A stretch of 62,147 nt of DNA, filler included, from Candidatus Woesearchaeota archaeon CG1_02_57_44 (GTDB lineage Archaea > Nanobdellota > Nanobdellia > Woesearchaeales > CG1-02-57-44): NCBI GenBank assembly GCA_001871415.1. It is 5 parts of 5 records of this genome, joined end to end, with 100 filler letters (N's around TTAATTAATTAA, not from the genome) between each part and the next. Parts side by side here need not be neighbours in the genome. Positions count along the whole stretch, not along the records: positions 10,772 to 21,347 come from MNWW01000068.1; 4 more parts are not named here. One strand, 5' to 3'. Below are positions 10,772-62,147 of this stretch, in pieces. Both the position numbers and the translations under genes were made by a program. How positions within the stretch are numbered: position 1 is the first letter of the stretch; each line of letters starts with the position of its first letter. The notes under the pieces are model-generated. The model saw only the letters and a program-made list of their open reading frames with translations, was not told the DNA's origin and searched no databases.

Positions 10772-10950
10772 AGAGCAGCGCGAGATACCACGCGCTTGAG
10801 CGGGCCATGCAGCCGACAAGTGCCGCGGGCTTTAAATATGTTATTGGACAGTAACTATAGAGATAACAAAAATCCGCCACTCGGCGCTAACCGCGGCCTG
10901 AAGGCCGCGGTATTACCGCGCCTCGTCATTGCAGGCGGATTTTTGAATTG
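10772..10950 (+). repeat. 179-bp direct repeat identical to 20953-21131
   Basis: Exact match at offset 10181; includes gene flank plus part of the element. Confidence 0.95.
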
Positions 10951-10999
10951 CAAAGCACGTCCTGAAGGACGGGGTATTCAACCCCGTGCTTTGCAATAA
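10863..10999 (-). mobile_element. Double-hairpin element, copy 2 (full length)
   Basis: Reverse complement of 107-243 with one T>C variant (GGCGGA). Confidence 0.8.
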
Positions 11000-11136
11000 C
11001 AAGGATCAACCAGCAATGATCATACTGAAGAGAAAGTGAAGAGAAAGCACAAGAGATCCGGAGCATCATCCATCCCGAACGCATCATGAGACAGACACCA
11101 TCCCCCAAGGGCATGCGCCACCAACACAGGCTTCAC

Positions 11137-12348
11137 ATGAACAAGCGAGGCGGCACCGGCTTTGACATGCTGATAGACTTCATGGGCATCCTCAAGTGGA
11201 CCTTCTTCATCATCGTCGTGTTCGTGTTCATCGGCCCACAGGGCTGCATCTTCCGTCCCGCGACGCAGCGCATTGACTCTGCCACCTCTGACGGACCCCA
11301 GCTCTCGCTGGTCCTGCTCGACCTGCTGCGCTCACCTGCCAATCTCGGCGTCGGGACCACCGCGGCGACCCCGTCGGCAGCAGCGTCAATAGGTACAACA
11401 GCAGGATCGTCCAGCACGGCCACCACCAGCACAGGAAGCGGCGCCACAGGCAGCAGCACGACCGACCCCAGCCTCGCGGAGATCCTCCAGAAGGTGAACA
11501 AAGGAGACGCCGCCATGACCGACTGGTTGCGTGTGAACCTTCCCACCCTGCTGCCCGACCCCTGGCGCTCGCACTACGGCCTTCGTATCGATTTCCCGTC
11601 CGGCTCCATAGGCTACACGCTCGCCACCCCCATCAGCCAGGCGTATGTGGCCGCGGACGATGGCGACGTCATCCGCGTCTCTGTCGTCGCGCTGCTCACC
11701 CAAGAGGATGCCCTGGAACTAGGATTCAATGACCTTGGCGAAGCGCGCCTTGCCGAGTACAACACTGCAGAGGGACTGGAGACATTCAGCGTCCCAACTG
11801 GGGGCAGCGGCTCATTCAATGCAGAGGGCATGCCGACGGACTGGGGATATACACCGTCAGGAACCTGCGCTGATGTCGTAGAGTACGCCTTCGGCTACCT
11901 TGGGACGAGCTACGCCTCGACCGGCGCATGCTCGGCGAGCAGGGCCCGCGCAGGACAGTGCAGCACCCAGTGCGGCAGCTTCGTGAGCAATGTCTTTCGC
12001 TACAGCAGAGGCCCGGCCAGCATCCCCTGGGGCAATGGCAATGAGAAATGCAACAGCGACCAGGTCACCCGTGTGTGGAGAGCCCCTGACAGCCTGCAGC
12101 CAGGAGATATCTTCAGCATCCGCAGCGGAAAATACGGCCATACCGGCATGTACGTCGGCAGAGGCTACTGGGGGGTGGACGCGAAAGGTAACTATGTCTA
12201 TTCGCAGGATCCCAACGGCAAGTATGTCTTTATCCACAGCACGACCGGCTGTAATCCCATCACCAAGCGTTGCCGAGAAGTACAGTTCACCTACTGGGAG
12301 AACATCGAACGCAGGAAGCCTATCTTCTGCAGGAACAAGGTGTGCTAA
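11137..12348 (+). CDS. Pilin-like N-terminus plus C-terminal NlpC/P60 cysteine peptidase
   Basis: MNKRG|GTGF followed by a hydrophobic stretch; Thr/Ser linker; TQCGSFVSNVF...LQPGDIF...GHTGMYVG...FIHST (Cys-His-His). Confidence 0.8.
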   Translation: MNKRGGTGFDMLIDFMGILKWTFFIIVVFVFIGPQGCIFRPATQRIDSATSDGPQLSLVLLDLLRSPANLGVGTTAATPSAAASIGTTAGSSSTATTSTGSGATGSSTTDPSLAEILQKVNKGDAAMTDWLRVNLPTLLPDPWRSHYGLRIDFPSGSIGYTLATPISQAYVAADDGDVIRVSVVALLTQEDALELGFNDLGEARLAEYNTAEGLETFSVPTGGSGSFNAEGMPTDWGYTPSGTCADVVEYAFGYLGTSYASTGACSASRARAGQCSTQCGSFVSNVFRYSRGPASIPWGNGNEKCNSDQVTRVWRAPDSLQPGDIFSIRSGKYGHTGMYVGRGYWGVDAKGNYVYSQDPNGKYVFIHSTTGCNPITKRCREVQFTYWENIERRKPIFCRNKVC

Positions 12349-15300
12349 TGACATCGTCCGCAACGCGAGTGCCAAAGGACCGCGTGTCTGCATCCGGCGG
12401 CTCGCCGTCCAGAGGGAGCGGCGCTAAGAGAACATGGGCTCGTCACCTTCGCCATTGGCGCCTCCATCGCTCCGGCAATTTCATCGTCATCGTCAACTGG
12501 CTTATGATCGGCATCATCCTCATCGCCCTCGTGCTGATGCAGCGCGACTTCGAGCAGGTCTGCCCGGACGGCGCCTGCGCCATAGGCACCCTGCAGCTGC
12601 AGACCATCTCCACGTCCGCCGCATCCGCGAACGCCCGCTGGTATCTCGGTGAGGCCGCGGGGTATGCCATGCAGGAAGCATTGGACGACCTGTACGCGTC
12701 AGGCATCGCCAGCAGCTGCTCGAGTGCTTCAGGCGTCGCTGTATTCTCCTATCAGGGCAATAGCTGCGTGCCGGACACAGCCGCCATCCGCGACGCGCTC
12801 AGCAAGAGCTTCTCCTCACGCATGGAGCCCTACAGCAAATCCTATATCATGGAACAGTACGCGAGCGTCCTGCCCTCCAGCTATGATGTGACGCTTGATA
12901 CGGTAGCCATCGCGACGTCACGCGATCCCCTCATCATCGCGCGCCTTGCCCCGATGGACACGCTCACAGACGATGACGCGACACGCATCGAGCGCATGAC
13001 CGACTGCGCGGCGACCCTCGCAAAAGCAGCGTCAGACCAGGCAGGTGTCGGCGGCTACGCGCCGACCGCGCGGCCCGGTTCTGCCGGCATCACGCCCCGC
13101 GCGTTCTCACCCTCGTCGTTCACGCATTGGGTGTACCGGGCGCTGGATATCGACATAGGATTTCCTGCATATCAACAATATCTGTTCATGGACGCGAACA
13201 CCGCCCAAGGCAGCCGCCTGGTCATCGACGACGGCACACACCTTGACCCCGGCGTCATAGCGTCGCGCCTGCAGCCAGGCGACCTGCTGTTCTTCAACGG
13301 CGATCACCCGCAAGGACCTCACCACATCGGCCACACCGGCATCTACCTTGGCTCAGGCACCTTCGCCCATGTCACCACCGCAGGCGTCACCATCAGCACG
13401 CTGGCAGCGCACCTGAGCACGCCCGAAGGGACGCTGCAGGCGGCCGCCCGCGTCTGTCCTGACGTGGTGAGCAGCGCCGCCGGCGGCGCGAGCGCCACGA
13501 CCGGCACCATCGGATTTGGTACCCTGACCCCTGCCACCATCACGCTAAGCACCGACGGCTCCCCGGCGGCAGACCAGGTAGCAGCCACGCTCAAACAATC
13601 ACTGGCCTCGCTAGGCATCACGGTCGACCAGAAAGGAGTCAGCACCTCCCCGCACCTTCGCCTGAGCCTGGGCACCGGCATCGACCGGGCAGGCATCTAC
13701 TATGGCGCGCCCGACCCTGTCAGCGGGGCCGTCAATCCGTCCATCGCCTCGCGCGAACTTCGCGCCGCGGACCAGCTCTGGCGCGCGTATCAGACGCTGC
13801 TCCCTTCCACTCAGCCCCAGCAGCGAGGTCCCGAGCTCATCTTGGCCCGCGACCCTCCACGGGCAGCAGTCGCGACTACAGCGACGGGAGCCGGCACGCC
13901 CGCAAGCGCAAGCACCTCCACGACCCCTGGTAGCATCCTCCCTGGCAGCGCACTTCCCGTCGGCGCGTCGACGAGCACGGGCAGCCCGACCACGAGCGCC
14001 ACGACGTCGTATCCTCCTGGCATCCATCTCGACCTCGTCGCTCCAGGGTCCGACGGCATCACATTCCTCTCCAGCAGCAACGCCCGCGGCACCTTGGACG
14101 AACAAGTCGCCAGCACATTGGCACTCGCCATCTACACGTTCCTGCGCACGGACGACCCACGGATATCCTTCAAGTCATCCTCCACCGGAAGCTCCCTTGG
14201 CATCTTCGACCTCACGGCGCCATACGACCGCCATGATTCAGAAGAGACGCTGCGAAAGTTCGAGAAGGACCTGGAAAGCAAAGGATTCTCACGCTACATC
14301 AATGAGCAGGCCGCTGCGCAAGGCATCGACGCTGCGCTCATCAAAGCCATCATCAAACGCGAGAACGACGGCCTGGACGCGAACAGCGGCAGGAACCCTG
14401 GCGACCCCCCGGTCAGCCCGCATGACGCGAGCATGGGCTACGGACTGATGCAGATAATCGCTCCCAACGCGTATCCCGGACTGAGCGGAGCCGAGGGCGC
14501 ATGCTGCATAGGCACGTGCGGGATCACCCCAGACACCATCACGGATCCGGAGAAGAACATCTGCTGCGGCACCTGCAAACTCAAAGCCCTGGCCGAGCGC
14601 TACGATAACAATCTCGAGCTCATCTTCGTGGGCTACAACGCGGGCCCTGGCGTCGCGGACCTGATGAAACCCTCCATCAACAACGTCCAGTCGGTCGCCG
14701 CATTCAACCAGCTGCTCCATGATTCGCTGGTGCACTTTGGCATCTATCGCTCGAACCCTGACCGCAAAGTCTTCATCACCTCTGGCTACGTGCTGCATGG
14801 CCTGCAGTACTATCAGTTCTTCGGCGGCGAGACCGGCGGCTTCGTCGACGACACCATGACGCTCGCGCAGCTTCGCGACGCTCCCATCCTGAGCAGCGAG
14901 CACGTCACACTGCTCGCCCAGCAGTCGCCGGACATCGGCCGCGACGTGAGCAGCGCCGCGGGCATCGCGGCAGACACCTACCGGTCCCTGCTCGCCTGCC
15001 TTCGCGACGGATCAGGCCAGACAGGCGATGATGACGCCACGACCTGCGTCTCTCGCCTGACCAGCCCCGGCACCACGGCGCGCATCGACGATACGAGCGA
15101 CGAGCGCATCCTGTACACGCATCTGGAGAGCATCACCCCGTCGGGAAGGACCCTCGCCTATACGGTCGCGGTCCGCGACATCATCCCTCCTCCAGCGACC
15201 CGCTGGCAGAGCATCAGCGCCTCTGGCGGCACGCTGTCGTTCATGTGGCAGGAGAATTTCGCCTCTGACACGGACCAGTACGAGATAGCCTGCGGCGGCA

Positions 15301-15605
15301 GCGTGCTGCACGACACAGACAACACAGAGCGCGGCTGGTCCTCGCCCTACACTGCCATCAGCTGCAACGGCCCCCTGATCGGCGGCAAGGAATATGAGTT
15401 CTCCATCCGCGCCCGCGACCAGCCCAAGGCCATCAACCCCAGCAACCCCACTCAGCGTGCGGACAACGCCGGCACGTGGAGCGCGTATCGTGTCACTATC
15501 CCCTATTGCTGCTACTCACCACCGAGCACCTTCTCCCCGGAGTTGCTGACCTGGCGGAACCATTGTGAACCGGGAGAATCATCGGTCGGCCTGAGCAATT
15601 GCTAG
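12348..15605 (+). CDS. Multidomain membrane-anchored muralytic protein: degenerate NlpC/P60, amidase-like remnant, lytic transglycosylase (SLT), FN3-like domain
   Basis: LQPGDLLFF...GHTGIYLG; IDAALIKAIIKRE, GYGLMQI, DPEKNI, GYNAGPG; YEFSIRARD. The ATG overlaps the upstream TAA. Confidence 0.8.
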   Translation: MTSSATRVPKDRVSASGGSPSRGSGAKRTWARHLRHWRLHRSGNFIVIVNWLMIGIILIALVLMQRDFEQVCPDGACAIGTLQLQTISTSAASANARWYLGEAAGYAMQEALDDLYASGIASSCSSASGVAVFSYQGNSCVPDTAAIRDALSKSFSSRMEPYSKSYIMEQYASVLPSSYDVTLDTVAIATSRDPLIIARLAPMDTLTDDDATRIERMTDCAATLAKAASDQAGVGGYAPTARPGSAGITPRAFSPSSFTHWVYRALDIDIGFPAYQQYLFMDANTAQGSRLVIDDGTHLDPGVIASRLQPGDLLFFNGDHPQGPHHIGHTGIYLGSGTFAHVTTAGVTISTLAAHLSTPEGTLQAAARVCPDVVSSAAGGASATTGTIGFGTLTPATITLSTDGSPAADQVAATLKQSLASLGITVDQKGVSTSPHLRLSLGTGIDRAGIYYGAPDPVSGAVNPSIASRELRAADQLWRAYQTLLPSTQPQQRGPELILARDPPRAAVATTATGAGTPASASTSTTPGSILPGSALPVGASTSTGSPTTSATTSYPPGIHLDLVAPGSDGITFLSSSNARGTLDEQVASTLALAIYTFLRTDDPRISFKSSSTGSSLGIFDLTAPYDRHDSEETLRKFEKDLESKGFSRYINEQAAAQGIDAALIKAIIKRENDGLDANSGRNPGDPPVSPHDASMGYGLMQIIAPNAYPGLSGAEGACCIGTCGITPDTITDPEKNICCGTCKLKALAERYDNNLELIFVGYNAGPGVADLMKPSINNVQSVAAFNQLLHDSLVHFGIYRSNPDRKVFITSGYVLHGLQYYQFFGGETGGFVDDTMTLAQLRDAPILSSEHVTLLAQQSPDIGRDVSSAAGIAADTYRSLLACLRDGSGQTGDDDATTCVSRLTSPGTTARIDDTSDERILYTHLESITPSGRTLAYTVAVRDIIPPPATRWQSISASGGTLSFMWQENFASDTDQYEIACGGSVLHDTDNTERGWSSPYTAISCNGPLIGGKEYEFSIRARDQPKAINPSNPTQRADNAGTWSAYRVTIPYCCYSPPSTFSPELLTWRNHCEPGESSVGLSNC

Positions 15606-15674
15606 CGAGCTGAGCAAGCGCTAGCGAGTAGACCAACGGGGGTACGGTTCAGCCATATCGCGACCCATCCCTCT

Positions 15675-16337
15675 TCAGGTCCTTTTCTCAACAGCAGTGA
15701 GATTCTCAATCACATCAAGCGACACGAGACCCTTGCGCCTGTCCTGGTAGTTGACAATTATCGTCGGCGTTCCCGTGACATTGAATATCGACTCCATGAA
15801 ATGCAGATCCTCGCTGAAGTTGTATTCCACGGCCAGCACGGTCGCCTGATAGCGCGCGCCAAATTCGTCGAGCACCTTGCCCTGGGCCCTGCTCGCCACG
15901 TCATCACCGTAGTAGAAGAGCACCACCGGCCCGATGTCGCAGCGCTGCGCGAACTGCTTCATGAGCAGGAAGGTGCGTATCTGCTGCAGATGATACTTGA
16001 CTTTCAGGTATCCGAAATCATCGCCGAGCAGACCGCCCGGCTCGGCCGTGATGATGCGCTGGCCGATGCCGAAGAGGTCGCGCTTCAGATCGCCCAGCCG
16101 CTGCTTTGCCACCGCGCAATCAGGGACCGCGGTCACCAGCTCCTGCTCGAGCAGAAAGCTCTGCTGATTAAGCTCATTGTCGCGCAACAGGCGCGTCACG
16201 TCATCAACCCCTCGCGTCCCCGTGATCCTTCCGACGACAATTCCCGCCAGGAAAAAGGCGAATACGACGAAGCCTACCACAAACAGACGATACTTATGCA
16301 TCCTCATGAGTCTCACCACCCTCATTCTTTTTGTCAC
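15675..16337 (-). CDS. Membrane-anchored protein with thioredoxin-like C-terminal fold (start uncertain)
   Basis: N-terminal TM; VLFYY...QGKVLD...FNVTGTPTIIVN. Confidence 0.6.
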   Translation of the reverse strand: MTKRMRVVRLMRMHKYRLFVVGFVVFAFFLAGIVVGRITGTRGVDDVTRLLRDNELNQQSFLLEQELVTAVPDCAVAKQRLGDLKRDLFGIGQRIITAEPGGLLGDDFGYLKVKYHLQQIRTFLLMKQFAQRCDIGPVVLFYYGDDVASRAQGKVLDEFGARYQATVLAVEYNFSEDLHFMESIFNVTGTPTIIVNYQDRRKGLVSLDVIENLTAVEKRT

Positions 16338-16425
16338 ATCGCATCAGCATGAACATCACCACCTGAACGCTTATCGTCGCCTCGTGGCACTGTCATCCCT
16401 GCACAGCCCCTCCTCAATCCCCCCA

Positions 16426-17730
16426 TCACCATCGCCTCTTGAGCTGGAAGAGCTCCTGCACACTCGCGGAGATCCAATATGCCAGGGTCACATACGGAAG
16501 CACCATCAGGAACAGCAGTATCGCACCAGGCTGCTTGAGCCGCTCGGTGCCAAACGAGTGTGCGGCATACAGGATGTAGAGCCCGACACAGGAGCTGATG
16601 AAGATGGGCAGGAAGATGCGAAAGTTCTGACCGAGCAGCAGCTCCTTGAGTGTCGGCACATTCAGGATGCGCGAGAGGAAATAATCCCGGATGATGATGC
16701 TACGGAACACGAACTCATAGAGACCCTGGACGGTGTTGATGATGATGACCAGCAGCGAGAGCAGCAGCAGCGGAGGACCGATGATGTTGAGGGGCAGCTG
16801 GAACCATCCCCACGTGCCGTACTTACGATTGAAGACCATGTTGCGATATCGCAGATGATTCTGGATGAACCCCCTGCTCCAGCGGATGCGCTGGCGCCAG
16901 AACTCGTCCATGTGCTCAGGCACGTCAGTGTAGGTGATGCTGTCATGCGCCATCTCAATGCAATAGCCTGCCTCCTTGAGGCGCATCGCCACTTCCAGAT
17001 CCTCGGTCATGGTCTCATGGTCAAAGCCATGCACCTGTCGCAGAATATCGGTGCGATAGACACTGAGCACCCCTGGCGTCACCCAGAGCGTGCCAATGGT
17101 GGAAATAATCTTTCTCATCAGCGCCGCCATCAGGTACTCGATGCGCTGCACCGCACCGAAGGCGCTCTGGTCATTGCGCACGCGGATGCTGGTGATGCCC
17201 GCCGCGACGCTGCCTTCCTTGGCGTCACCCTGCTCAATAAGCGGCACGAGATTGCGCAGCGCATCAGGATGTATGGTCGAATCCGCGTCCAGAACGCCGA
17301 AGAGCTCTGTATCGGCTATCGCCAGCGCTGCGTTGAGCGCGACGGATTTTCCCTCCTTGTTCTTTCTTAGCACACGGATCTTCGCGCCCCGCTCATGCAC
17401 CTTGCCATCAGCCCCGCCTACGGGAGTTGCCATTGCCTCACTATGTGGCCTTCGCATGGATGCAAGACGAGCCGCTATAGCAGGGGTGGCATCCGTGCTG
17501 CCATCGTCGATGATGATGATGGTGAGCTTCGCCTTCGGATAGTTGGACGCGAGAATGGATCGCACACACACATCCAGATTGTCGGCCTCGTTGTGCGCAG
17601 GCACGGCGATGGTGACAGAAGGATACCTGCGCATGGGCTGTCTCTCGAATCCCAGGTAGTAGAGAGCCAACCATACGGTCCCTAGGTACAAGAAGATGAA
17701 CGAGAGCGCCAGCGTGATGAGCGTGTTCAT
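16426..17730 (-). CDS. Processive GT2 glycosyltransferase (cellulose synthase/PgaC-like)
   Basis: VPAHNE, DDGSTD, DAD, TED and QRIRW motifs; flanking TMs. Confidence 0.9.
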   Translation of the reverse strand: MNTLITLALSFIFLYLGTVWLALYYLGFERQPMRRYPSVTIAVPAHNEADNLDVCVRSILASNYPKAKLTIIIIDDGSTDATPAIAARLASMRRPHSEAMATPVGGADGKVHERGAKIRVLRKNKEGKSVALNAALAIADTELFGVLDADSTIHPDALRNLVPLIEQGDAKEGSVAAGITSIRVRNDQSAFGAVQRIEYLMAALMRKIISTIGTLWVTPGVLSVYRTDILRQVHGFDHETMTEDLEVAMRLKEAGYCIEMAHDSITYTDVPEHMDEFWRQRIRWSRGFIQNHLRYRNMVFNRKYGTWGWFQLPLNIIGPPLLLLSLLVIIINTVQGLYEFVFRSIIIRDYFLSRILNVPTLKELLLGQNFRIFLPIFISSCVGLYILYAAHSFGTERLKQPGAILLFLMVLPYVTLAYWISASVQELFQLKRRW

Positions 17731-19523
17731 ACGACCACCTTGGGCTGCTGCTCTTGGCCAGCGACCTGACTTGATGCCTGGTCTGATACTTGGTTTGATG
17801 CGCCCCCCTGGGCTCCTGCAGCCTGTGTATCGACGGGCAGTCCGGCAAACGGCTCGTCGGTCGCCTGCAACGCATCTGCCGCCTGCACGTGCCAAAGCTC
17901 GTAGGGCGGCTCGTCCATCACCTTCTCCAGGCCAGGCGCCTTGCCCAGCAAGAACAGCATACCATCATCTTCCGCAGCCCAGACCAGGCCGCTACGCATG
18001 TCTTGGGTCACAAGAATATCCCGCACACCCGCGGCGCGCAGTTCCATCTTGAGCTTCGCATACCCCCGGGTCGAAAACAGCTCATCGGCTTTCGCTTTTT
18101 GCCCCGGCGTTGATACCGTGTCAATGAAAGGCTCGCGTCCCGCTATAGCGCGCAGCACGATACCATAACGTTCCTGGCTGAGCACCCTGTCGCGCATGCC
18201 TGACGGCGGAAGTGAATCCTCCAAGGGATTCTGTGAGGGACTCTGTAAGGGAGTCTGTAAAGGAGTCTGCAGGTCCCCTGTGCCTAGAGCTGAGGATAGC
18301 AAAGGCAGCGCGCGCGCCTGATCCTGTGCCGGCGTCGCTGGCAGCACAGTCAGGGCGGGTATGCCAGGCATGGAACTAAACACGTCCAACGCGGTCCTGT
18401 CTGGGAATGAGCGCACCAGCAGGGTCGTGTAGGATGTGTAGGAGAACACGATGCCCAGCAGGATCAGAAACAGCGTGAATCTCCTGACCATCTGGTCATC
18501 CCAGGACATGGCCATCAAATGCGCAAGCCCGATACCGCCAAGCAGCGCGAACAGGAGGTCAAGGAGTATGCGCAGAGAAAAAAAACCCGCCACGAAGAGC
18601 ACCATCAGGATAATGCCCGCGAGATACGCGCCAGGATAACGTTTCTTGAGCCGCCACCCAGCGACGGCGCCCACCATCGCGCAGAGCACATGGAACACGC
18701 CGAATCCCACGACACTTCCAAAGTCAGCCAGCAGCAGAAAGATCCCAGGCCAGGGCACCAGCGGCTCACGCACGGGCGAATACCACGCGAAGGCGATGGT
18801 GAGCACAAGCAGCAATGGCACCAGCCATCGCCCCTTGTGCCGGTGCACGGTGGCGAAGGCCAGCACGACAAACGCGCAGGACAACTGCAGCGAGAGGGGC
18901 AGCAACAGCAGCGCGGCAAGCGCAGCCGGCCACCATACGAGCAGACCGTATGCTCCCAGCAGCAAGAGCACCAAAGCCGGCGCAGCCGAAGACAAGCCCA
19001 AGAACGCGATGATGAATACGGGAGAGGATACCAACAGCAGCAATGCAATGCCCGCTTCCCGCTCACTGAGGAACTCGCCGACCACACGATAGAAGAGCAA
19101 CGCCGCGAGCACCCCCAGGAACAATGTGATAGCGATCGCCGCTGCGGGCCGCGACGCATCAGGAAACAGCGACAGGAATGCGCCCAGCAGCCGCTGCCAG
19201 TAGGAGGGTCCCGCATAAAGGATGTCCGCGTTTCGCACGGGCAATGCTGCTGCACTGCCCATCGCCGCGCGGCCTACTGCTGTGCTGCCCACCACTTCAT
19301 TGCCAGGCAATCCCACAGCGTCCTGGGCCGCAGGAAATACACCAGCCATGGTCAGCTGATAGTAAGGAATCTCTGTCAGGAGCGGAGTCGCGTCCCTCGT
19401 CTCTTTCATCGCCAGGGGAATCGCCAGCAATAAGAGCACCATCATGACCAGCCACACCTTGCTGGATATCCCTCCGCGCACCTTGTCAACCTTCTCGCCA
19501 GCGAGCCCCGCCTTGGCGTTCAT
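17727..19523 (-). CDS. Polytopic membrane protein, GT-C-like with extracellular C-terminal domain
   Basis: Many TMs; C-terminal VLSQERYG...GVRDILVT; overlapping start/stop with both neighbours. Confidence 0.6.
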   Translation of the reverse strand: MNAKAGLAGEKVDKVRGGISSKVWLVMMVLLLLAIPLAMKETRDATPLLTEIPYYQLTMAGVFPAAQDAVGLPGNEVVGSTAVGRAAMGSAAALPVRNADILYAGPSYWQRLLGAFLSLFPDASRPAAAIAITLFLGVLAALLFYRVVGEFLSEREAGIALLLLVSSPVFIIAFLGLSSAAPALVLLLLGAYGLLVWWPAALAALLLLPLSLQLSCAFVVLAFATVHRHKGRWLVPLLLVLTIAFAWYSPVREPLVPWPGIFLLLADFGSVVGFGVFHVLCAMVGAVAGWRLKKRYPGAYLAGIILMVLFVAGFFSLRILLDLLFALLGGIGLAHLMAMSWDDQMVRRFTLFLILLGIVFSYTSYTTLLVRSFPDRTALDVFSSMPGIPALTVLPATPAQDQARALPLLSSALGTGDLQTPLQTPLQSPSQNPLEDSLPPSGMRDRVLSQERYGIVLRAIAGREPFIDTVSTPGQKAKADELFSTRGYAKLKMELRAAGVRDILVTQDMRSGLVWAAEDDGMLFLLGKAPGLEKVMDEPPYELWHVQAADALQATDEPFAGLPVDTQAAGAQGGASNQVSDQASSQVAGQEQQPKVVV

Positions 19524-20989
19524 TGCCCTCCCTCCTTAATCCTGCAATGCGACTCGTATACGATACTGCCCGGCAGCACGGTCTTACGAAAGCAATTTCC
19601 TGAGTAAGGAAGATCCGCCACACCATAGCGCTCCTGAGCCCTCTGCGTCACCAGGATATGAGTGACGCCGTAACGGTTGAGCAAATAGACCGCGTTAGTC
19701 GCGTACGGGGTCGTGTAGATATCCTGAACATCCTCATTGCGCTGCAGGCCATCGCGCAAAAAAAGAAAACTTGACGCCAGCACCACACGCCTGCCAGTCA
19801 AGTACATGAGCGCCGCTGCCTGCGATGGCGGAACCACGATGATCGCGTCCTGTGGCGTGTTCTGACGGACCCATGCGAAAGCCTGCTCATCCACCAGGAC
19901 AGATGACTGCTGTTTCCCTGACACGGTGAAGGCGAACGCGGCAGGAGCAGATGTTGCGACCAGCATCATCAGCAGGAGCGCTATGATACCTCCAGCGTGC
20001 CCAGAAAAGCGCGAGCGCTGCAGGAACGCCCAGAGCAGCTGCAGAAACAGGCCCGTCAGCAATGTCAACGCGACGCCCAGGTAGAGCAAGCCATACTGGA
20101 CCTGAACCAGACCCAGCGCAAGCAACACCACACACGCCAGCACAGATGAGATGATAAGGTACACAGGATGACGCTGCTCGAGGCTGAATGAATACCTGCG
20201 GATCATATAGACGCCTAACATGAACGGCACGATACCAACGGCCGTGATGGCTGTCAGCACATTTACCGGTTCGCTGATGGGAGAGGACCATAACAGATGC
20301 GTGCCATGGAAGAGCAGGACGCGCTTGAATACCACAAAACCAAGCCATATCAGATATAGCAGCGTGAAGAGCGTCATCTCCACCTCCCGCCGACGTATAC
20401 GCATGCCTGATACATTCGCGAAGAGCAGGTACATGACGAGCGTGAGCCCCAGCAGCTCGGATATAGGAGCGGTGAAAGAGAGCGCGATGAGTCCTCCGAT
20501 GAACCATGCTGTATACTGGCCCTGACGCAGAAATCCATACAGGCAGAAAAAGAACAAGGGCAGCGCGAGCGCGTGCGACGTGATGGTAAGCGACGACGCT
20601 ATCGCCAGGGGCATGAGCCCTGCCATACCCGCGGTTATCAGCGCTATCGGATCGCTTCCGGTCAGCTCTTTTGCCAGCAGATAGATGACGGGAATAATCA
20701 GCGCGGCAATGATATTGGACCATATCTTGTAGGCAACCAACCCCGGAAACGGCAGTGATAACAGAGCCACCAGATAATAGAATAATGGTAGGGTTATCAG
20801 ATGCGGCTTGCCCAGCACCAGCTCGCTCGTTGTCTGCGGAACACCTGTCGTCCCTATATAGCCTATCTGCGCAGCGGCGGCGAATGAATCGCCATCCGCG
20901 AAATAGGGCACGGACAGGGCGATCGCCAGATGGATGCTCACCACCAGCACAAAGAGCAGCGCGAGATACCACGCGCTTGAGCGGGCCAT
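19520..20989 (-). CDS. Polytopic membrane protein, GT-C/STT3-like
   Basis: D.DS loop after TM1; WVRQNTPQDA; LNRYGVTHILVT. Confidence 0.65.
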   Translation of the reverse strand: MARSSAWYLALLFVLVVSIHLAIALSVPYFADGDSFAAAAQIGYIGTTGVPQTTSELVLGKPHLITLPLFYYLVALLSLPFPGLVAYKIWSNIIAALIIPVIYLLAKELTGSDPIALITAGMAGLMPLAIASSLTITSHALALPLFFFCLYGFLRQGQYTAWFIGGLIALSFTAPISELLGLTLVMYLLFANVSGMRIRRREVEMTLFTLLYLIWLGFVVFKRVLLFHGTHLLWSSPISEPVNVLTAITAVGIVPFMLGVYMIRRYSFSLEQRHPVYLIISSVLACVVLLALGLVQVQYGLLYLGVALTLLTGLFLQLLWAFLQRSRFSGHAGGIIALLLMMLVATSAPAAFAFTVSGKQQSSVLVDEQAFAWVRQNTPQDAIIVVPPSQAAALMYLTGRRVVLASSFLFLRDGLQRNEDVQDIYTTPYATNAVYLLNRYGVTHILVTQRAQERYGVADLPYSGNCFRKTVLPGSIVYESHCRIKEGGQ

Positions 20990-21043
20990 GCAGCCGACAA
21001 GTGCCGCGGGCTTTAAATATGTTATTGGACAGTAACTATAGAG

Positions 21044-21131
21044 ATAACAAAAATCCGCCACTCGGCGCTAACCGCGGCCTGAAGGCCGCGGTATTACCGC
21101 GCCTCGTCATTGCAGGCGGATTTTTGAATTG
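21044..21131 (-). mobile_element. Double-hairpin element, copy 3 (right half only)
   Basis: Identical to 10863-10950; lies at the centre of a fold-back. Confidence 0.8.
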
Positions 21132-21347
21132 TCTATAGTTACTGTCCAATAACATATTTAAAGCCCGCGGCACTTGTCGGCTGCATGGCCCGCTCAAGCG
21201 CGTGGTATCTCGCGCTGCTCTTTGTGCTGGTGGTGAGCATCCATCTGGCGATCGCCCTGTCCGTGCCCTATTTCGCGGATGGCGATTCATTCGCCGCCGC
21301 TGCGCAGATAGGCTATATAGGGACGACAGGTGTTCCGCAGACAACGA
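21132..21347 (-). repeat. 216-bp inverted duplication of 20827-21042 (fold-back at contig end)
   Basis: Exact reverse complement. Confidence 0.95.
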
Positions 21348-32523: not shown

Positions 32524-32629
32524 CGAGAGGTAAGGGCGCGATGGTCCTGTCACCAGAGACGCAAGCGGAATTTCAGCGCCTTGTCGAAGGACACCGTCGT
32601 CTGCTTGAGGCGATAGGGAAGCTGTAGTG

Positions 32630-32766
32630 TTATTGCAAAGCACGGGGTTGAATACCCCGTCCTTCAGGACGTGCTTTGCAATTCAAAAATCCGCCTGCAA
32701 TGACGAGGCGCGGTAATACCGCGGCCTTCAGGCCGCGGTTAGCGCCGAGTGGTGGATTTTTGTTAT
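32630..32766 (+). mobile_element. Double-hairpin element, copy 4
   Basis: 32524-32766 is identical to 1-243; the sequences diverge right after the terminal TTAT. Confidence 0.8.
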
Positions 32767-32822
32767 TTGGCGCAGAGAAAAGAAGGCCATTCACATGGAA
32801 TGAAGTGATTGGGGTGATTGAT

Positions 32823-40863: not shown

Positions 40864-41544
40864 GAAGCGTTGCCTTAGTAAAATTCGGCTATATGCTGGA
40901 ACATCCGTGTATCCCGCATTACCACTGGACAACCATCCATAACGATTATTACAGGGGTTGTTGTCAGGGTGACAAAATGACGGGTGCGGACAATCAGCAG
41001 GAAAGGCTAGATGCCCGATGGATTGCAGGATTCGTGGACGGCGAAGGATGCTTCCACGTTGCGATCAACAAGCTCGACAAGATGACGAGAGGTTACCAGG
41101 TATTGCCGGAACTTCGCATTGTCCAGAACAAGCGCGATATGCGGTTATTGCACCGCATTCAGCAGGTTCTGGGTGGCGTGGTCCGGCATAACCATGATGA
41201 CATCTACGAAGTCAGAGTACGAAGACTTGAGGAATTGCAGCGGGTCGTGGATTTTTTCCGCAGGTATCCATTACAGTCCCAGAAGCGACATGATTTTTCA
41301 TGCTTCGCTGAGATTGTCGGAATGATGGCGCGACGCCAGCATTTGACGGTCGAGGGATTGGAAAAGATTCGCAATATACGAGATCGTATGAACAGGGCGT
41401 CTGGAATCCTCAGAGACTGCACGCCGAACCTCCGCAAGGGGGATGATACAGTCCGAACCGTCAGGCGACTGGCGGAGGCATGATGAAAGTCATGTCCGCC
41501 ACAGTGATGTGGTCAGTAACCCGCAAGGGTGAAGTAACAGTTTG
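40864..41544 (+). ncRNA. Group I intron at LSU position ~1931 (681 nt)
   Basis: 5' exon ends CTTAAGGT; IGS GCCTTA; P ATGCTGGAA, Q AATCAGCAGG, R TCAGAGACT, S GATACAGTCC; terminal G before AACGAAATGCC. Confidence 0.93.
40977..41483 (+). CDS. Single-motif LAGLIDADG homing endonuclease
   Basis: WIAGFVDGEG, YPLQSQKRHDF, HLT.EGL. Confidence 0.93.
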   Translation: MTGADNQQERLDARWIAGFVDGEGCFHVAINKLDKMTRGYQVLPELRIVQNKRDMRLLHRIQQVLGGVVRHNHDDIYEVRVRRLEELQRVVDFFRRYPLQSQKRHDFSCFAEIVGMMARRQHLTVEGLEKIRNIRDRMNRASGILRDCTPNLRKGDDTVRTVRRLAEA

Positions 41545-44769: not shown

Positions 44770-45711
44770 ATGCATAAGCAGGCGCAGCTGGCCGCAACTC
44801 TGGTTGTGGGAGTCGTCATCATCCTTGCGGTAGCGATGGCCTCCAACAGGCCTACTGCGCAACAGGTCATTCCGCAGGGTGATGACTCGGTGGCTACGTT
44901 GGTGCAATCCTGCTTGCAGCAATCGTTGGAGCAGGCAGTCATTGATTACGGCGCTGAGCCGCGCTGGTGCTACAAGGACGGTGTCCTGGCTCATTTTGAT
45001 GATGCCTACACCCGCGTGTCTGACCTTGTGCGCTCCAACCTGCAATCCTGCATCGATCTCACCAACAGGCAGAATGTCGAGGCAGGGGCGCCGTCTGTAC
45101 GTCTGGCATTCGGAACAGATGGCATCACTGCGGGACTTTCCTTCTCTCCTCCGCTGTCAGTGACCACCAATACTGGCAAGCAGCGCTTCACGGACTTCAC
45201 TGCTGATCGCGGTGTGCGCCTGCGTCTGATAGTAACAGCGGCGGAGCGGCTGGCCGACGACGTTGACTCAGTAACGCTCTTTGAGCGCACGCGCCAGATG
45301 CTTGAGGCCGATGACATCACTGCCCGTTTCACCACGCTGGGCGATGAGCACACCCTGACCGTGACTGACGAGCATACAGGTGACGCGTTCACCTGCAAGA
45401 TACTGCTGCCTCCGGGGCAGTCCACCCTGAATGGCCTGCTGCCGGTCTTTGACTCTGGCACGTGTGTCCAGGCATATGCTGGCCTGCCATCATCCTGCAT
45501 CGTCCACGCATTAGACCCGGACAGCGCGTATGTGGATGTTGTGTCATTGTCTCCTGATGTGCAGGTCGAACAGCAGGGGCCGTATGCGGCCAAGCTGAGC
45601 TTCACTGCGGCATCGGCGCTGAGCGAGCTTGACATCCCGCTGCGGTTGCGTGATTCAGAGAATAATTTCAAGGACGTCACACTGACGGTGCAGGTGGTGC
45701 CGCTTGTCTGA
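44770..45711 (+). CDS. Class III signal peptide (type IV pilin-like) surface protein
   Basis: MHKQA|QLAATLVVGVVIILAV; TTTAAA box upstream; paralog of 49952. Confidence 0.7.
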   Translation: MHKQAQLAATLVVGVVIILAVAMASNRPTAQQVIPQGDDSVATLVQSCLQQSLEQAVIDYGAEPRWCYKDGVLAHFDDAYTRVSDLVRSNLQSCIDLTNRQNVEAGAPSVRLAFGTDGITAGLSFSPPLSVTTNTGKQRFTDFTADRGVRLRLIVTAAERLADDVDSVTLFERTRQMLEADDITARFTTLGDEHTLTVTDEHTGDAFTCKILLPPGQSTLNGLLPVFDSGTCVQAYAGLPSSCIVHALDPDSAYVDVVSLSPDVQVEQQGPYAAKLSFTAASALSELDIPLRLRDSENNFKDVTLTVQVVPLV

Positions 45712-48700
45712 TGTCTTGTCTAATAGCAGGATGCAGTGCAGGGCACAAGTGCTCCTGCTGATGATGCTCATGGTGCTGGCCGTGGTTCCTTCATCTGTCC
45801 AGGCAGAGCCCGAGCTGCGAGGCAAGATAGCCAAGCTCATCATGGCAGAGCCGGGAGCACAGACGCTGAATCATCATATCGGCGCTGTCATCTTCATGGG
45901 TGCTGATACCAAGGAGAAGGACAGTACGCAGATCAAGGCACTAATCAAGCCGTATGCTGATGACGGCATGATAGTTGCTTCTGATATGGAAAGCGCGACA
46001 GTCAATCGGTTGCAGTCCATTTGTGCGCTCAAGGCAGCATCAGACATGGCTAGTGATACAGAACTGCGGGCATACATGAAGGAAAAGGGCGAGTGCTTCA
46101 GATCAGTCGGCATCAATCTTGACCTCGCGCCGGTGTTGGACATCTCAGGAACTGGCAATGAGGTGAATGCCCGCAGCTTCGGGACCGACGCCCAAACGGT
46201 GAGTGCGGCTGGAGCATTGTATATCCTTGGTCTGCGGGATGCTGGTGTCGGCGCGACGGCGAAGCACTTTCCTGGATTGTACGGTCTGAGTTCAACAAGA
46301 ACGGACACGACCTTGGTGAGCATCCAAAAGACTGAGAGCAAACTTGATGGACGAGAGCTTATCCCCTTCACCAAGGCCAAAGAAGCAGGTGTCTACGCAG
46401 TCATGATGTCAAGCGCGTTGTTCCCATTGCTTGATCAGACTGATGAGCAGAAGAAGATGCCCGCAGGCATCAATCCGACCCTGGTGGCAAAGGCCCGGCA
46501 CATCTTCGGCACCGATACAGTCATCATGACCGATGCGCTCAACACCGCGACATTCAAAGCTTACTACAAGGATGATGATGATTATATCGTCAAAGCGGCG
46601 GTCGATGCCTTACGCGCCGGCAACGACATGGTGCTGGTCATGGATCCTGCGAAGATAGACGCGGTCATCACGGCGGTCGAAGCTGATGTGACGAACACAC
46701 AGGATGACACGCTCACCCAAGCAGATATCGACGCTAAATACGCCCGCGTCAAGACCCTGACCGAAAAGCTCACCAAGGGAACGACGACTGGAGCGACAGG
46801 CTCAACGTCGGACACCACCACAGGCACCAAGACCGTCCAGTCCCAGCCGACCGTCATCGTCCTNNNNNNNNNNNNNCGTCCTTGACCCGGGGCATGGCAC
46901 AAAGGGTGTCAGGACCTGCGCTGGCGACCCGGGTGATAAAGGTGCCAATACAGAGGAGAAGCTGAACCTGATCCTGTCGAACAAGGTCAAGGCAGTGCTT
47001 GAGGCAAAGGGCTACCGTGTGCTGCTCACCCATGAGAAAAGCGACTGCTCAGAGAAGCTGGCGACCAAAGGCACGGACGGGAAAGGGGAAACGCAGCCCG
47101 AGAAGGACTATCGTATCTCCGACCGATGGGCGCGCGCAGACGTCGCCAACAACAATGGCGCTGCATTGCTGGTGGCCCTCCATAATGATTACAAAGAGGG
47201 CGGTAGTGCCGTGTACTATCCTGATCATCATCTGCAGGAGACCAAGAGCAAGCAGGCCGCCAAGAGCATCTGGGCAAAGCTGAGTGCGGCTATTCCAGAG
47301 AACATCAAGCACAGCGGGGTCCTGACAGAGGATACTGCGCTGAAAAGTCATGCTAACCTGCAGGGCACACCGCCCGACGACGGCAAGTCCTTCAAGTTTG
47401 ACTGGTCCGCGCACAGCACCGTGCCGGTGGTCACGGTGGAGGTCGTGCCACTATCAGCTGCAGGCATCACTTTTATCAGGACTGTCCCTAATCAGCAGAA
47501 GGTCGCGCAGGCCATTGCCGACGGCATCATGGCGTTCGCGCCTGCGACAACAACCACGACAGGTTCCTCCACCGGCACAGCAGACCAGCCCCATGGTTCC
47601 TTCTCTGACATCCCTGAGAAGCACTGGGCCGACCCACTGGTCAAGAAGGTTACTGCCGCTGGCCTGATGACCGCAACAGACGGCAAGTTCAACGGCGCTG
47701 CCGCAAGCACGCGCAAGGACGTGCTGATTGCGCTGGGCAAGGCGCTGCAGGACAAGATATTCTCGGTGAAACAAAATAAGGATGCCATAACAAATGAATG
47801 TTCTGATGGCGCGCAGGTGTATGGCGAGCAATTGACAGGCAATGACTGCGTCGCGGCTTCTGCTCTGGCCAGCGTCACAAAACCAACAGTCCCAGAGCTG
47901 GCTGTCGAACCAACGCGCCTTGATGTGGCCGGGCTTCTGGGCGCTGCCGCGACTGCGCTATCACTGCCAAAGCCGCAGGCCCTGAGCGCGCTGGACATTG
48001 ACCCCAAGACTATCTGGTCTGACGCTGACGACGCGAGCGCTCCTGTCATCAAGGCAGCGGCTGAGTACGGGCTGTTCACCGGATACCCTAAGGTGGATGG
48101 CAAGTGCTCCTGGAAGCCGTCAGACAAGCTGGTGCGCTATGAGCTGGCGATTGTCGCAGATCGTGTCATGGGCCTTGCCCGAGGCAGCGCAGCGGGCATC
48201 AGTCCTGGATATTTCGCTGATTGCAGGAGCGCGGCAGAGGCGACGGCAAAGCAAGCGCAATGGGGCGAGGAGCATCCTTTGCCTGATGGTGGTCTCAAGC
48301 GCGATAAGCTGGAGGTGCGAGGCATAGGCACGATGCAGGAGGCGGGAAGTGACCTGCGCATCAACCTCGAGCCCAAGCCAGGTGCGATCACGGTGATGGG
48401 GACGCAGATAACGTCTGAGGAGCCATCGACCATTGAATTCATTGATGGCATATTCACAGTCTCATTGAAGAAAGGTGGCTTCTCAGCCGATTATCAGGTA
48501 GAGCAGGCGACTATCACCTTCGGCAAGACAGCAATTGATCCTAAGGTCATCACGCTGGCGCAGGGAGGGTCCATGGCATTTGCGCCCGCGAGCCAAGGAC
48601 AAGACCGCCCCGATGAGCAATACCGCGTTGACGGGCCCTTGTCTGTATTGCTGCTCGCTCCGGGCGCATCATTCCCTAAAACAGCAGAGCAGGACATCGC

Positions 48701-49838
48701 TATCATCCCGGCGCATGGCGATAAGCCCATGCAGCTGCGCATCTACAAGGGCAAAGGCAAGGTCACTATCGGCAGTGTGGAAGTGACATTTGAGGCCGGT
48801 GCCATCACCAACCAGGCAGACCTGAATAATAAGCAATCATCCATCGCGGCTACGGTGACTGACGTGCGGGGGACGAATGTCATATTCGCGCCAAAGTCTG
48901 ACGCGGTGGTGACCGAGGGAACGGGCGCTCACACAAGTAACGCAGCATCACCTCCAACAACAGTCACTCCCGGGTCATCAACGAAGATGACCATTGCCAT
49001 GTCGCCGCAGGTATTGACGTTAAGTGATGTGGCTCAGATTCAACCTAAGAACGTGCCAAAGATCATCTCCGGCCTGCTGCGCTTCATGCTCCTGAATAAC
49101 AACGGGTTCGACATAGTCGCTCAAAATAATCCAGGTGCCACTGTCAAACTGGATGTGACCGCAGCGGTCAATGGCGTTTCAACAGATGTGGTAGAATATG
49201 GGCCTGAGCTTCAGGCTCTTGGCAATGCCCTGACGAAAGAACTGGATGCGGAGGGTATATTGCCTGGGACTACTGCAACAAAGACAACCACGCCAAAGTC
49301 CCTACGCCTTAAGCTCAAGGATCCGAAATCTGACTCTATCGGTGTGGTGACCGACGCGTTGTACCGTGGCCTGGTCGCGCGCCTGAAAGACGTGCAGGGC
49401 ACAGACGCTCCCACGTCGCTTGTTACCGGGGAAGCGACAGAAAATATCGTGATTGAGCTGTATTTCAAGGCCAATGACCGCGATTCTGAAAAATTAGCCA
49501 GCTACCTCGCAAAGCTCTTTGATCCTCAGACCGGGCCGTATAGGGGCATCAAGAACACACAGGTGCGCCTCACGCAGGATCCCGATGCGTTCAAGATGCG
49601 CATAAAGACCGATGGCAATGCAAACGCAAACAAGCTCAAGCAGCTCATAGAGAAACATACTGATTCCATTGCAACAGTGACCGTGGTATCAGACACTACC
49701 AATGGCAATTATGTCACCATCGCAGGGCTCACGTACAATGACAAGACCACAACGCAGCTCTTCAAGGCCATGCTGCAGTATCTGAACATCCTGGATCCAA
49801 GCCTGATGGTAGAATCCCCCTCTGCTGCTACGCCTTGA
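45704..49838 (+). CDS. Fusion of GH3 beta-N-acetylglucosaminidase (NagZ-like), N-acetylmuramoyl-L-alanine amidase (Amidase_3), SLH domains and a C-terminal region; spans a false scaffold gap
   Basis: GINLDLAPVLD, RSFG, KHFPG, MTDAL. CGTCCT is repeated on both sides of the N gap, giving TVIVLDPGHG. Also EEKLN, ALHND, VTVEV, FSDIPEKHWA...TR and GLFTGY...VRYE. Confidence 0.8.
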
Positions 49839-49951
49839 TCTGGTCAACTGCGATAGGTTGACTTCTCGCCCATGACCTCCTTTTCTGCACCCCTGAATCT
49901 CGCCGAAACCTTTATAAGCTGCATTGTCCAATATCAGCCCGGGCAAGGTCA

Positions 49952-50652
49952 ATGATGAAAGCGCAAGCTACGGCGTTCATAGTGCTCGGCATAGTGGTTC
50001 TCATCGCTGTTGGCTCTGTCCTCCTGCTGCGTCCTGCGCAGCAGAGCGCTGTGCAGACAGGCATCGGGCAGGCAGTCTTCACCTTTACGCAGCAGTGCCT
50101 GCAGCAGAGCGTTGATGAGGCAGTCTCCCAGCTTGGCTCTGGCGCGCTGGTCTGCTATCAGGACCGAAGCTTCATCACGGTCAGTGAGGTGCAGGAGTTC
50201 CTGCAGCAGGTGGCGAAGCGTAACCTTGAGCAGTGCCTTGACTATGGCGCGTTTGCTTCGCAGGGCATGCGGGTGGATGAGGGTGTGTATGATTTCTCCC
50301 TGCGGGTGCGCGATACAGGGCTGGAGGCGGGCATGGCCTTTGACGAGCCGCTCATCGTCTCTGACAGCAGGCGCGAGGAGCGCTTTGACGCGTTCTCGTA
50401 CGATTCACCCCGGCCGGTCCGGGCATTGGTGCAGACTGCTGCCAGCGGCGCTGACTATCTGGACGAGGCATCCTGGTTCGCGTGGCTGCAGGAGCGCGCG
50501 GCAGAGGATGGCATTGACCTGTCAGTTGAGAGCGCTGACGCCATGCACGTGCTCAGCGTGGTGCACGGTGATACGATGCTCAGATGCGGCATGTACCTGC
50601 CAGCAGGACACAGCACCATCAACGGCATGCTGCCCATCGCGGTGCAGGTGCC
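49952..50652 (+). CDS. Class III signal peptide (pilin-like) protein, truncated; paralog of 44770
   Basis: MMKA|QATAFIVLGIVVLIAV; shares CLQQS, CY and PxGxSTxNGxLP motifs with 44770. Confidence 0.75.
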
Positions 50653-62017: not shown

Positions 62018-62147
62018 TTATTGCAAAGCACGGGGTTGAATACCCCGTCCTTCAGGACGTGCTTTGCAATTCAAAAATCCGCCTGCAATGACGAGGCGCG
62101 GTAATACCGCGGCCTTCAGGCCGCGGTTAGCGCCGAGTGGCGGATTT
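62018..62147 (+). mobile_element. Double-hairpin element, copy 5 (truncated by window end)
   Basis: Starts at TTAT just after the dnaG oligo-T tract; identical core. Confidence 0.8.

Follow-up and report, generated by a model that had tools for sequence, protein, structure and literature searches.

Two adjacent genes of a Woesearchaeales archaeon are likely to encode pilin-like carriers of exchangeable wall-hydrolase domains

Two adjacent genes of Candidatus Woesearchaeota archaeon CG1_02_57_44 encode proteins in which domains related to peptidoglycan hydrolases are joined to pilin-like segments. They lie on one contig (C64), at positions 10772-21347 of the 62,147-nt stretch of DNA that was analysed (henceforth the window; five parts of the genome joined end to end), which contains a thermosome gene together with other archaeal genes. 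The source genome is 1.53 Mb in size and 82% complete. It is the sole member of its family, and the relatives with which it is compared share the order only; the order contains well over 100 families, with genomes of 0.6-2.7 Mb. In gene 1 a CHAP/NlpC-type peptidase is appended to a small pilin-like protein of a family that we call U1. In gene 2 an NlpC/P60 domain, an amidase-like segment and an SLT-type lytic transglycosylase follow the N-terminal half (N-half) of what we call the carrier, and a probable C-terminal half (C-half) comes after them (Table 1). We think it rather likely that the pair represents two neighbouring subunits of a conserved pilin-like surface cluster that carries exchangeable peptidoglycan-cutting domains.

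Table 1. Features of the gene pair, with positions in the window
Feature	Position	Strand	Description
Gene 1 (P0001)	11137..12348	+	403 aa; U1-family pilin-like carrier with appended CHAP/NlpC-type peptidase
U1 carrier of gene 1	11137..11706	+	KRG motif, hydrophobic helix, small head
Thr/Ser tract interrupting U1 carrier	11350-11469 (residues 72-111)	+	inside carrier
CHAP/NlpC-type domain of gene 1	11854..12345	+	C279 (11971-11973), H335, H367
TAATG stop-start overlap	12346..12350	+	junction of genes 1 and 2
Gene 2 (P0002)	12348..15605	+	1085 aa; carrier N-half, NlpC without catalytic Cys, degenerate amidase-like segment, SLT, carrier C-half, FN3-like
Carrier N-half	12462..12956	+	hydrophobic helix, long helix, Cys pair, two strands leading into the slot
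NlpC/P60 without catalytic Cys	12981..13463	+	Pro codon 13110-13112; H329 and H341 kept
Amidase_3-like, without Zn-ligand motifs	13521..14150	+	Thr/Ser tract 13797-14015 inside
SLT-type lytic transglycosylase	14265..14717	+	E672 at 14361-14363
Probable carrier C-half, strongly diverged	14880..15197	+	helix, Cys pair, last strand, DxxPP
FN3/Ig-like beta-sandwich	15195..15506	+	Pfam E 0.13; position common to relatives

An earlier reading, made from the nucleotide sequence before any database was consulted (the sequence-only reading), had proposed that the two genes are translationally coupled. They do share a TAATG stop-start overlap, the junction is bridged by contigs of all four sequencing runs compared, and an overlap of 1 or 4 bases is present at the same junction in 26 of 77 relatives. 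In gene 1 the U1 profile matches residues 1-69 (E 6.7e-10), and the rest of the head was assigned by eye. The peptidase falls under the curated Pfam cut-offs for both families that match it, scoring 23.1 bits as CHAP (E 1e-4; cut-off 26) and 18.2 bits as NlpC (E 0.0024; cut-off 23). The Cys-His-His set noticed previously is present, and from these catalytic residues the peptidase is predicted to be active; the Cys is kept by 9 of the 11 distinct relatives aligned, gene 1 itself included. The SLT domain of gene 2 (residues 650-768; PF01464, E 1e-11, 44.8 bits against a cut-off of 21.3) likewise retains its catalytic Glu together with the GLMQ and YNAG motifs, and is also predicted to be active. 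The Cys-rich insertion ascribed to it is half right, since ACCIGTC falls in a variable loop, but ICCGTC is part of a conserved SLT helix, where one relative reads NICCG.

Residues 39-201 of gene 2 weakly match 7 of 40 relatives, and in each of these a different-looking wall enzyme directly follows the region. Of 301 genomes in the order, 251 contain the carrier according to a profile built from these eight sequences (gene 2 and the seven weak matches), mostly in a single copy and in frames of ~170 to 1300 codons. It is present in 185 of the 222 high-quality genomes of the order, and in 243 of 293 genomes when eight unpublished ones are removed. More widely, the profile matches 155 of 201 genomes of the phylum, and gives 1,684 matches among 50%-identity representative proteins. 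In the Atlas, the clusters nearest to the carrier consist of unannotated Nanobdellota/Woesearchaeota proteins. Across the order this carrier is near-core and mostly single-copy, and it exists either empty or loaded.

What the carrier is loaded with was analysed in a census of 76 loci, taken from published genomes, one per family among G001-G135, at the better-scoring matches. A Pfam match of wall-hydrolase type (E ≤ 0.001) is found in 47 of the 77 carrier open reading frames (ORFs), distributed over eight families: M23 (22), SLT (12), M15/VanY (4), Amidase_2 (3), NlpC (3), glucosaminidase (2), 3D (2) and C39_2 (1), the last being a papain-like family that is not specific to murein. When our own profiles, weaker Pfam matches and the next ORF are counted, 56 of the 76 loci are loaded (49 of 69 after removal of the seven seed loci), 14 of them with more than one family. 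The remaining 20 comprise 12 that are empty, 4 cut by a contig end, 2 that appear loaded by eye only and 2 with unknown inserts. In a scan of database relatives, covering 109 of 150 listed representatives (5 seeds, 24 proteins of ≤218 aa and 12 over the size limit were left out), 64 have a match of wall-hydrolase type; this set overlaps the loci, and adds YkuD, M74, M15_4 and Amidase_3. The clade to which the gene 1 peptidase belongs occupies the gene 2-type slot in other genomes.

Other cargo is also seen on the carrier or its C-half, including GH3, metallophosphoesterase, NAGPA, GDSL lipase and TPM domains, at the loci L094:1601-6811, L108:4258-8028 and L102:5001-8426. The slots of L057:5350-8007 and L112:4992-7169 contain inserts of 200-300 residues without a Pfam match, which are candidates for new wall-active families. 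At L115:1674-6305 a carrier of 1543 aa bears four payloads (two SLT-like, one NlpC and one CHAP-type) in a record titled Methanosarcinales; its gene order is that of Woesearchaeales, so that the contig is probably misassigned.

The composition of the payloads bears on the nature of the substrate. Papain-like domains of the CHAP and C39 kinds are able to cleave other peptides as well; with such domains among the payloads, and one slot holding C39_2, the target might instead be pseudomurein in a methanogen host, or the envelope of the cell itself. By contrast, the families that supply most of the payloads (SLT, M23, M15, Amidase_2/3, glucosaminidase, 3D, M74 and YkuD) are defined on murein chemistry, and since so many of them converge on one slot murein is the likely target; we regard a non-bacterial substrate as highly improbable. 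Neither Mur ligase nor transpeptidase (penicillin-binding protein) was found in the source genome, while both families were matched in 10 of 14 control genomes.

The C-half of the carrier, defined from the empty carriers, is present in 63 of the 76 loci, either within the same ORF or in the one that follows. Where both halves are in one ORF the payload lies between them in 24 of 27 cases and behind them in the other 3, and the alignment has a single insertion point for payloads. An AlphaFold model of an empty carrier, calculated from a 73-row alignment, has a predicted local distance difference test score (pLDDT) of 92.4 and a predicted TM-score of 0.83. The insertion point falls in the loop connecting the strands 156-161 and 169-175, so in this model the slot is one beta-hairpin loop of the carrier head.

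Payloads vary from family to family and in some cases also among members of one genus. Twelve genera were compared, each with at least two genomes, and the payload class differs within three of them (3D/3D/glucosaminidase; empty/M15/M15; glucosaminidase/empty/empty). On a tree of the RPA proteins encoded nearby the payload labels are unclustered, requiring 33 changes against a shuffled mean of 32.2; none of its 48 branches is strongly supported, and the tree therefore shows little about payload turnover. From their motifs most payloads appear to be intact. The catalytic Glu is visible in 11 of 12 SLT payloads, while 4 of 24 M23 payloads are without both metal motifs, Ser replaces the Cys in one of the three Pfam NlpC payloads, and 2 of 11 CHAP-type domains have no Cys.

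This pattern of replacement can be set against another explanation, in which the proteins are membrane-anchored exoenzymes that obtain sugars and amino acids by digesting wall debris from dead bacteria. The same enzymes would serve such a purpose, and a GH3 domain, which would release monosaccharide, is present in the slot of one locus and also beside an amidase elsewhere in the window. However, a scavenger gains by keeping all its activities, and the slot is instead refilled with mutually different families, within genera too. It also sometimes holds a dead domain alone. All of this would be better accommodated by matching to a host. Scavenging is in our view an unlikely explanation.

The carrier is part of a gene cluster. 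Upstream there are conserved small genes (U1, F1, F2, F4, F8 and F9) with N-termini composed of a basic residue and Gly or Ala followed by a hydrophobic stretch; downstream are RPA, YdjM and RadA. The U1 gene adjoins the carrier gene directly on its upstream side in 71 of 77 cases, and the gene after the carrier is in most loci its own C-half or RPA. The F2 protein (e.g. L066:3004-3999 and L058:3049-4008) ends in an Amidase_3-like domain, identified by eye, that is degenerate in most genomes of the order. We note that in two loci the profile match of the RadA frame is split by a long insert (L124:8687-11140, 818 codons; L127:10066-12000, at least 645 codons); these are probably inteins. In other orders of the class, where 20 of 31 listed loci were examined, the gene order is the same, F2 is without its amidase part, and in 3 of the 20 loci a different gene of the cluster bears a payload. 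In the source genome the cluster is scattered, with F4, F8, F9, RPA and RadA on other contigs.

The downstream genes raise the possibility of a competence-like pseudopilus for DNA uptake, whose hydrolases would free DNA or nucleotides from bacterial neighbours in the manner of fratricins. RPA follows the carrier in 51 of the 76 loci and RadA in 27, and the link to RPA is found in 18 of the 20 loci from other orders, where the carriers are empty. Yet there is no DNA channel or nuclease among the common neighbours, the gene pair is apart from RPA and RadA (contig C61) in the source genome, and the adjacency may be plain synteny. We consider this explanation quite unlikely.

The assignment of a pilin-like surface cluster with exchangeable cargo rests on the N-termini as well as on the gene order. 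The sequence [KR][GA] followed by a hydrophobic stretch, our simple pattern for a class III signal, is present in 69 of the 77 carriers, and gene 1 has KRG at its N-terminus. The source genome encodes a prepilin peptidase, pilus ATPases and platform proteins, none of them adjoining the gene pair.

A number of observations weigh against this assignment. Foldseek gave no match to the model of the empty carrier at E ≤ 0.001, and the best VIA match, the minor pilin PilV (Z 4.3, root-mean-square deviation 3.6, 77 residues aligned), is tied with unrelated chains; the top 50 VIA rows include six pilins or pseudopilins, GspK and PilV among them, tied with unrelated folds. The N-terminus of gene 2 reads RSG-NF, which is not [KR][GA], so this protein may escape cleavage by the prepilin peptidase. 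There is no pilus ATPase or platform gene among the common neighbours of the cluster, and F1 and F2, which usually lie upstream, were not found in the source assembly. The C-half of gene 2 itself appears borderline, having a HMMER E value of 0.075, with 1 of 60 shuffles scoring as high in one test and 12 of 150 in another; its Cys pair, last strand and DxxPP are nonetheless in register, and the FN3-like domain comes next, as it does in the relatives. None of the 20 carriers from other orders (191-340 aa) is loaded as judged by eight payload profiles. Since these are empty, as are 12 of the 76 loci within the order, the cluster has some function for which an enzyme is not required. Lastly, in a genome that is 82% complete the absence of the murein genes is unproven.

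Weighing all this, we consider it very probable that the proteins are displayed on the surface and act on bacterial peptidoglycan, whereas their carriage on a type IV filament is an even question. Both proteins would be exported and anchored through the N-terminal helix, and would then probably be assembled as minor pilins into a type IV filament or a short pseudopilus. Once a bacterium is reached, the SLT domain would cut the glycan strands (cleavage by this family yields 1,6-anhydro products), and the peptidase of gene 1 would cut stem peptides or cross-links, so that the wall is opened locally for attachment and feeding. The NlpC and amidase domains of gene 2 would be an older tandem, once active, that may now serve as a tether or spacer. 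An enzyme load on gene 1 is unusual, in that 9 of 78 U1 proteins are longer than 225 aa and one of those nine has a recognisable peptidase.

The loss of catalytic residues in gene 2 can be followed in detail. Residues 247-355 match the NlpC/P60 family (PF00877, E 2.7e-9, 37.4 bits against a cut-off of 23). The sequence FSPSSF aligns with FDCSSF of CwlO, placing Pro255 at the position of the catalytic Cys, the loss of which had been recognized from the sequence. A displaced Cys could have taken its place, but no other Cys lies near the active site; C220 and C370 correspond to a Cys pair found at the ends of the NlpC domain in relatives. The Pro255 codon is CCC, two base changes away from a Cys codon, and it is covered by one of the four sequencing runs compared (X4, which is not flagged as a run from which this DNA may derive) with no differences; a sequencing error is considered unlikely, given the two changes required and the one run that covers the codon and agrees. 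The domain is assigned to the NlpC/P60 fold but is not expected to be an active member. A search with this domain found two distant bacterial-type NlpC proteins, while a direct homolog search with the whole of gene 2 recovered its own fragment alone. The single-sequence AlphaFold model of the entire protein is poor (pLDDT 38), and fold searches made with it returned weak FN3/Ig-like rows and none for NlpC, amidase or SLT. The FN3 domain proposed earlier is weak by sequence and by fold matches to a low-confidence model, although relatives have a clear FN3 domain at the same position. The long Thr/Ser linkers thought to separate the domains do not do so, as both tracts are located inside domains (residues 484-556 of gene 2 in the amidase-like segment, and 72-111 of gene 1 in the carrier).

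The degenerate amidase-like segment described between NlpC and SLT is upheld. In BLASTP, residues 308-426 of gene 2 align with 279-391 of the database relative P0117 (E 9e-9), the alignment passing through the common RVCP end of NlpC into the first helix of the amidase. Against a profile made from four intact amidases, residues 392-601 reach a score of 68.4, and none of 150 shuffles or 200 natural windows of the genome scores as high; this was the third profile tried, with gap settings of our choosing. In that alignment none of the motifs for the Zn ligands (His, Glu, His) and the catalytic Glu of Amidase_3 is present. Neither Pfam nor the Atlas gave anything for the segment, and BLASTP to one intact amidase was negative. 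Since Pfam and the two earlier profile tests were negative, we regard support for homology of residues 392-601 with the Amidase_3 fold, judged on sequence, as moderate. Derivation of the segment from the degenerate amidase of F2 was unsupported, as 35 of 60 and 48 of 120 shuffles, and 113 of 200 natural windows, scored as high.

P0117 and a second database relative, P0147, have the order carrier-NlpC-Amidase_3 and keep both the Cys of the DCS motif and the Zn-ligand motifs of the amidase. The loss is therefore lineage-specific, and the dead state is not conserved for the tandem; gene 2 appears to be a decayed form of an NlpC-amidase tandem that is intact elsewhere. Intact-looking counterparts exist in the same genome, namely gene 1, a paralog of its peptidase on an unrelated carrier (contig C24), and an Amidase_3 domain at 46.9-47.5 kb of the window.

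It had been suggested that the inactive domains were repurposed to bind peptidoglycan around an active transglycosylase. For RipD of mycobacteria, a catalytically dead NlpC/P60 protein, peptidoglycan binding was measured, according to the parts of the report consulted (PMC12067865). The likeness to gene 2 is that of an NlpC/P60 fold from which the catalytic Cys has been lost. In those parts the RipD loss is conserved (PMC12067865); gene 2 has Pro at this position and keeps both His, and its binding would be putative. Within the carrier family, the sole recognised payload is an M23 domain without catalytic motifs in all 3 species compared of one genus and in both of another; such retention of dead M23 by several species, in two genera, speaks for selection on domains that are not catalytic. 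It would bear on the family, and not on binding by gene 2. Alternatively the dead domains may be relics, new payloads having been stacked into the slot while older ones decayed and persisted as folded spacers because they are located inside a needed protein. The intact residues of the tandem in P0117 and P0147 and the intact-looking substitutes in the genome are in keeping with this, as are the drift of the amidase nearly beyond recognition, with acquisition of a 70-residue Thr/Ser tract, and the presence at the nucleophile position of Pro, a harsher change than Ser or Ala. On the other side stand the NlpC domain that can still be matched at E 2.7e-9 with both His kept, the dead M23 retained as the sole recognised payload across species of two genera, and the RipD precedent of a dead NlpC/P60 domain able to bind peptidoglycan (PMC12067865). 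We would put peptidoglycan binding by the dead domains of gene 2 at slightly under an even chance; the probability of their being relics is judged to fall a little short of one half.

A conserved delivery part combined with a variable antibacterial domain is characteristic of polymorphic toxin systems, and a conserved carrier with an exchangeable domain of toxic type resembles these. The cargo here is internal, and not at a C-terminal tip, and no adjacent immunity gene or array of orphan cassettes was seen at the carrier loci; an immunity gene would be unneeded by an owner without murein. The carrier system works like a polymorphic toxin system, but is not classed as one.

Murein transglycosylases of Woesearchaeota and Pacearchaeota have been described, as fam00969 (PMC8204110) and GH23 (PMC9723730), with bacterial targets proposed. 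They share with our proteins the lineage, an extracellular SLT-type domain and the proposed action against bacterial walls. Those accounts are of a hydrolase domain in each genome, or of proteins up to 3,000 aa long, and the portions consulted describe no carrier, fixed site or exchange of families; the word 'pilin' occurs 0 times in the main texts of both. Modular peptidoglycan hydrolases of archaea are prominent in Nanoarchaeota, and killing has been shown for haloarchaeal enzymes (PMC12352652). In the parts consulted these too are secreted wall hydrolases whose catalytic domains have been repeatedly replaced. A known cell-wall-binding domain was a condition for inclusion in that survey, which also tallied Sec/Tat signals, and its proteins are patchy and often plasmid-borne; here the enzyme is inserted in a loop of its partner, a pilin-like carrier that lacks annotation and is near-core and chromosomal. 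Type IV minor pilins and other proteins with class III signals, such as the bindosome, resemble the carrier in the basic-Gly/Ala motif and hydrophobic helix, in the clusters of small genes, in the scattered type IV filament machinery of Nanobdellati and in the presence of cargo domains on pilin-like N-termini (PMC13705601). There the cargo consists of substrate-binding or adhesin domains ('peptidoglycan' and 'hydrolase' each occur 0 times in that text), and the pilin fold match of our carrier is weak. A published description of the carrier or its slot was not found in a search that mostly did not reach subscription papers and did not cover supplements (the proteins may appear in the family tables of PMC8204110, in S2 of PMC12352652 or in S4-S5 of PMC13705601); a term search of 10.64898/2026.05.13.725050 gave 0 matches. 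Wall hydrolases in these archaea, with bacterial targets proposed, are already known, and what appears to be new here is a pilin-like carrier with a fixed, swappable slot.

Several further features of the window and genome were noted. Positions 44770-50652 (+) of the window contain a pilin-like gene, a GH3 domain (E 3.8e-37), an Amidase_3 domain (E 1.7e-20; the intact-looking domain mentioned above) and then another pilin-like gene. This is a second wall-hydrolase locus; the GH3 and Amidase_3 parts are separated by a 13-base N gap (46864-46876) and probably belong to one large secreted protein. The C24 paralog of the gene 1 peptidase is the CHAP-type tail of a membrane-anchored protein (L136:1488-3380) that is 32% identical to a paralogous one on contig C21 (L157:77-2473). 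The tail of the latter is different, being DPBB-like by eye with no match in Pfam; relatives of the two range from 509 to 1373 codons, and the pair is possibly another swappable slot. A strongly self-pairing repeat of ~140 bases is spread over 37 contigs, with 44 copies when those of 80 bases or more are counted; 38 of these copies are no more than 400 bases from a contig end. In the window it occurs at 105-245, 10861-11002 (just upstream of gene 1), 21042-21131, 32628-32767 and 62018-62147, and it probably represents a small mobile element at which the assembly breaks. A LAGLIDADG endonuclease gene at 40893-41483 (+; E 3.1e-23) perhaps lies inside an intron or RNA gene. Contigs C47, C68, C72 and C75 of the source genome contain giant open frames, 2970 to 4636 codons long, several of which resemble secreted surface proteins.

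The sequence-only reading overlooked the archaeal host, the pilin-like N-termini of the carriers and the exchangeable enzyme cargo; the dead domains of gene 2, being specific to this lineage, matter less than the cluster context. The DPANN symbionts in cultivation have archaeal hosts, and the hosts of most Woesearchaeales are, to our knowledge, unknown. The repeated filling of one slot of a near-core gene with murein-cutting domains provides order-wide evidence for bacterial targets. Tentatively, and with less than even confidence, the order as a whole might be viewed as contact parasites or predators of bacteria, in which an ancestral pilin cluster free of enzymes, as it still is in sister orders, was turned into a weapon at the pilus tip with a loop for interchangeable lysins; the payload would then record the type of wall attacked, and dead payloads would be adhesins for host recognition. 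The carrier cluster names candidate machinery by which these archaea may attach to and open bacteria, and points to a pool of lysins missed by surveys that rely on known wall-binding domains. It also makes the question of the host testable without culture, by assays of the expressed domains on several kinds of wall and by comparison of payload type with the bacteria that co-occur.

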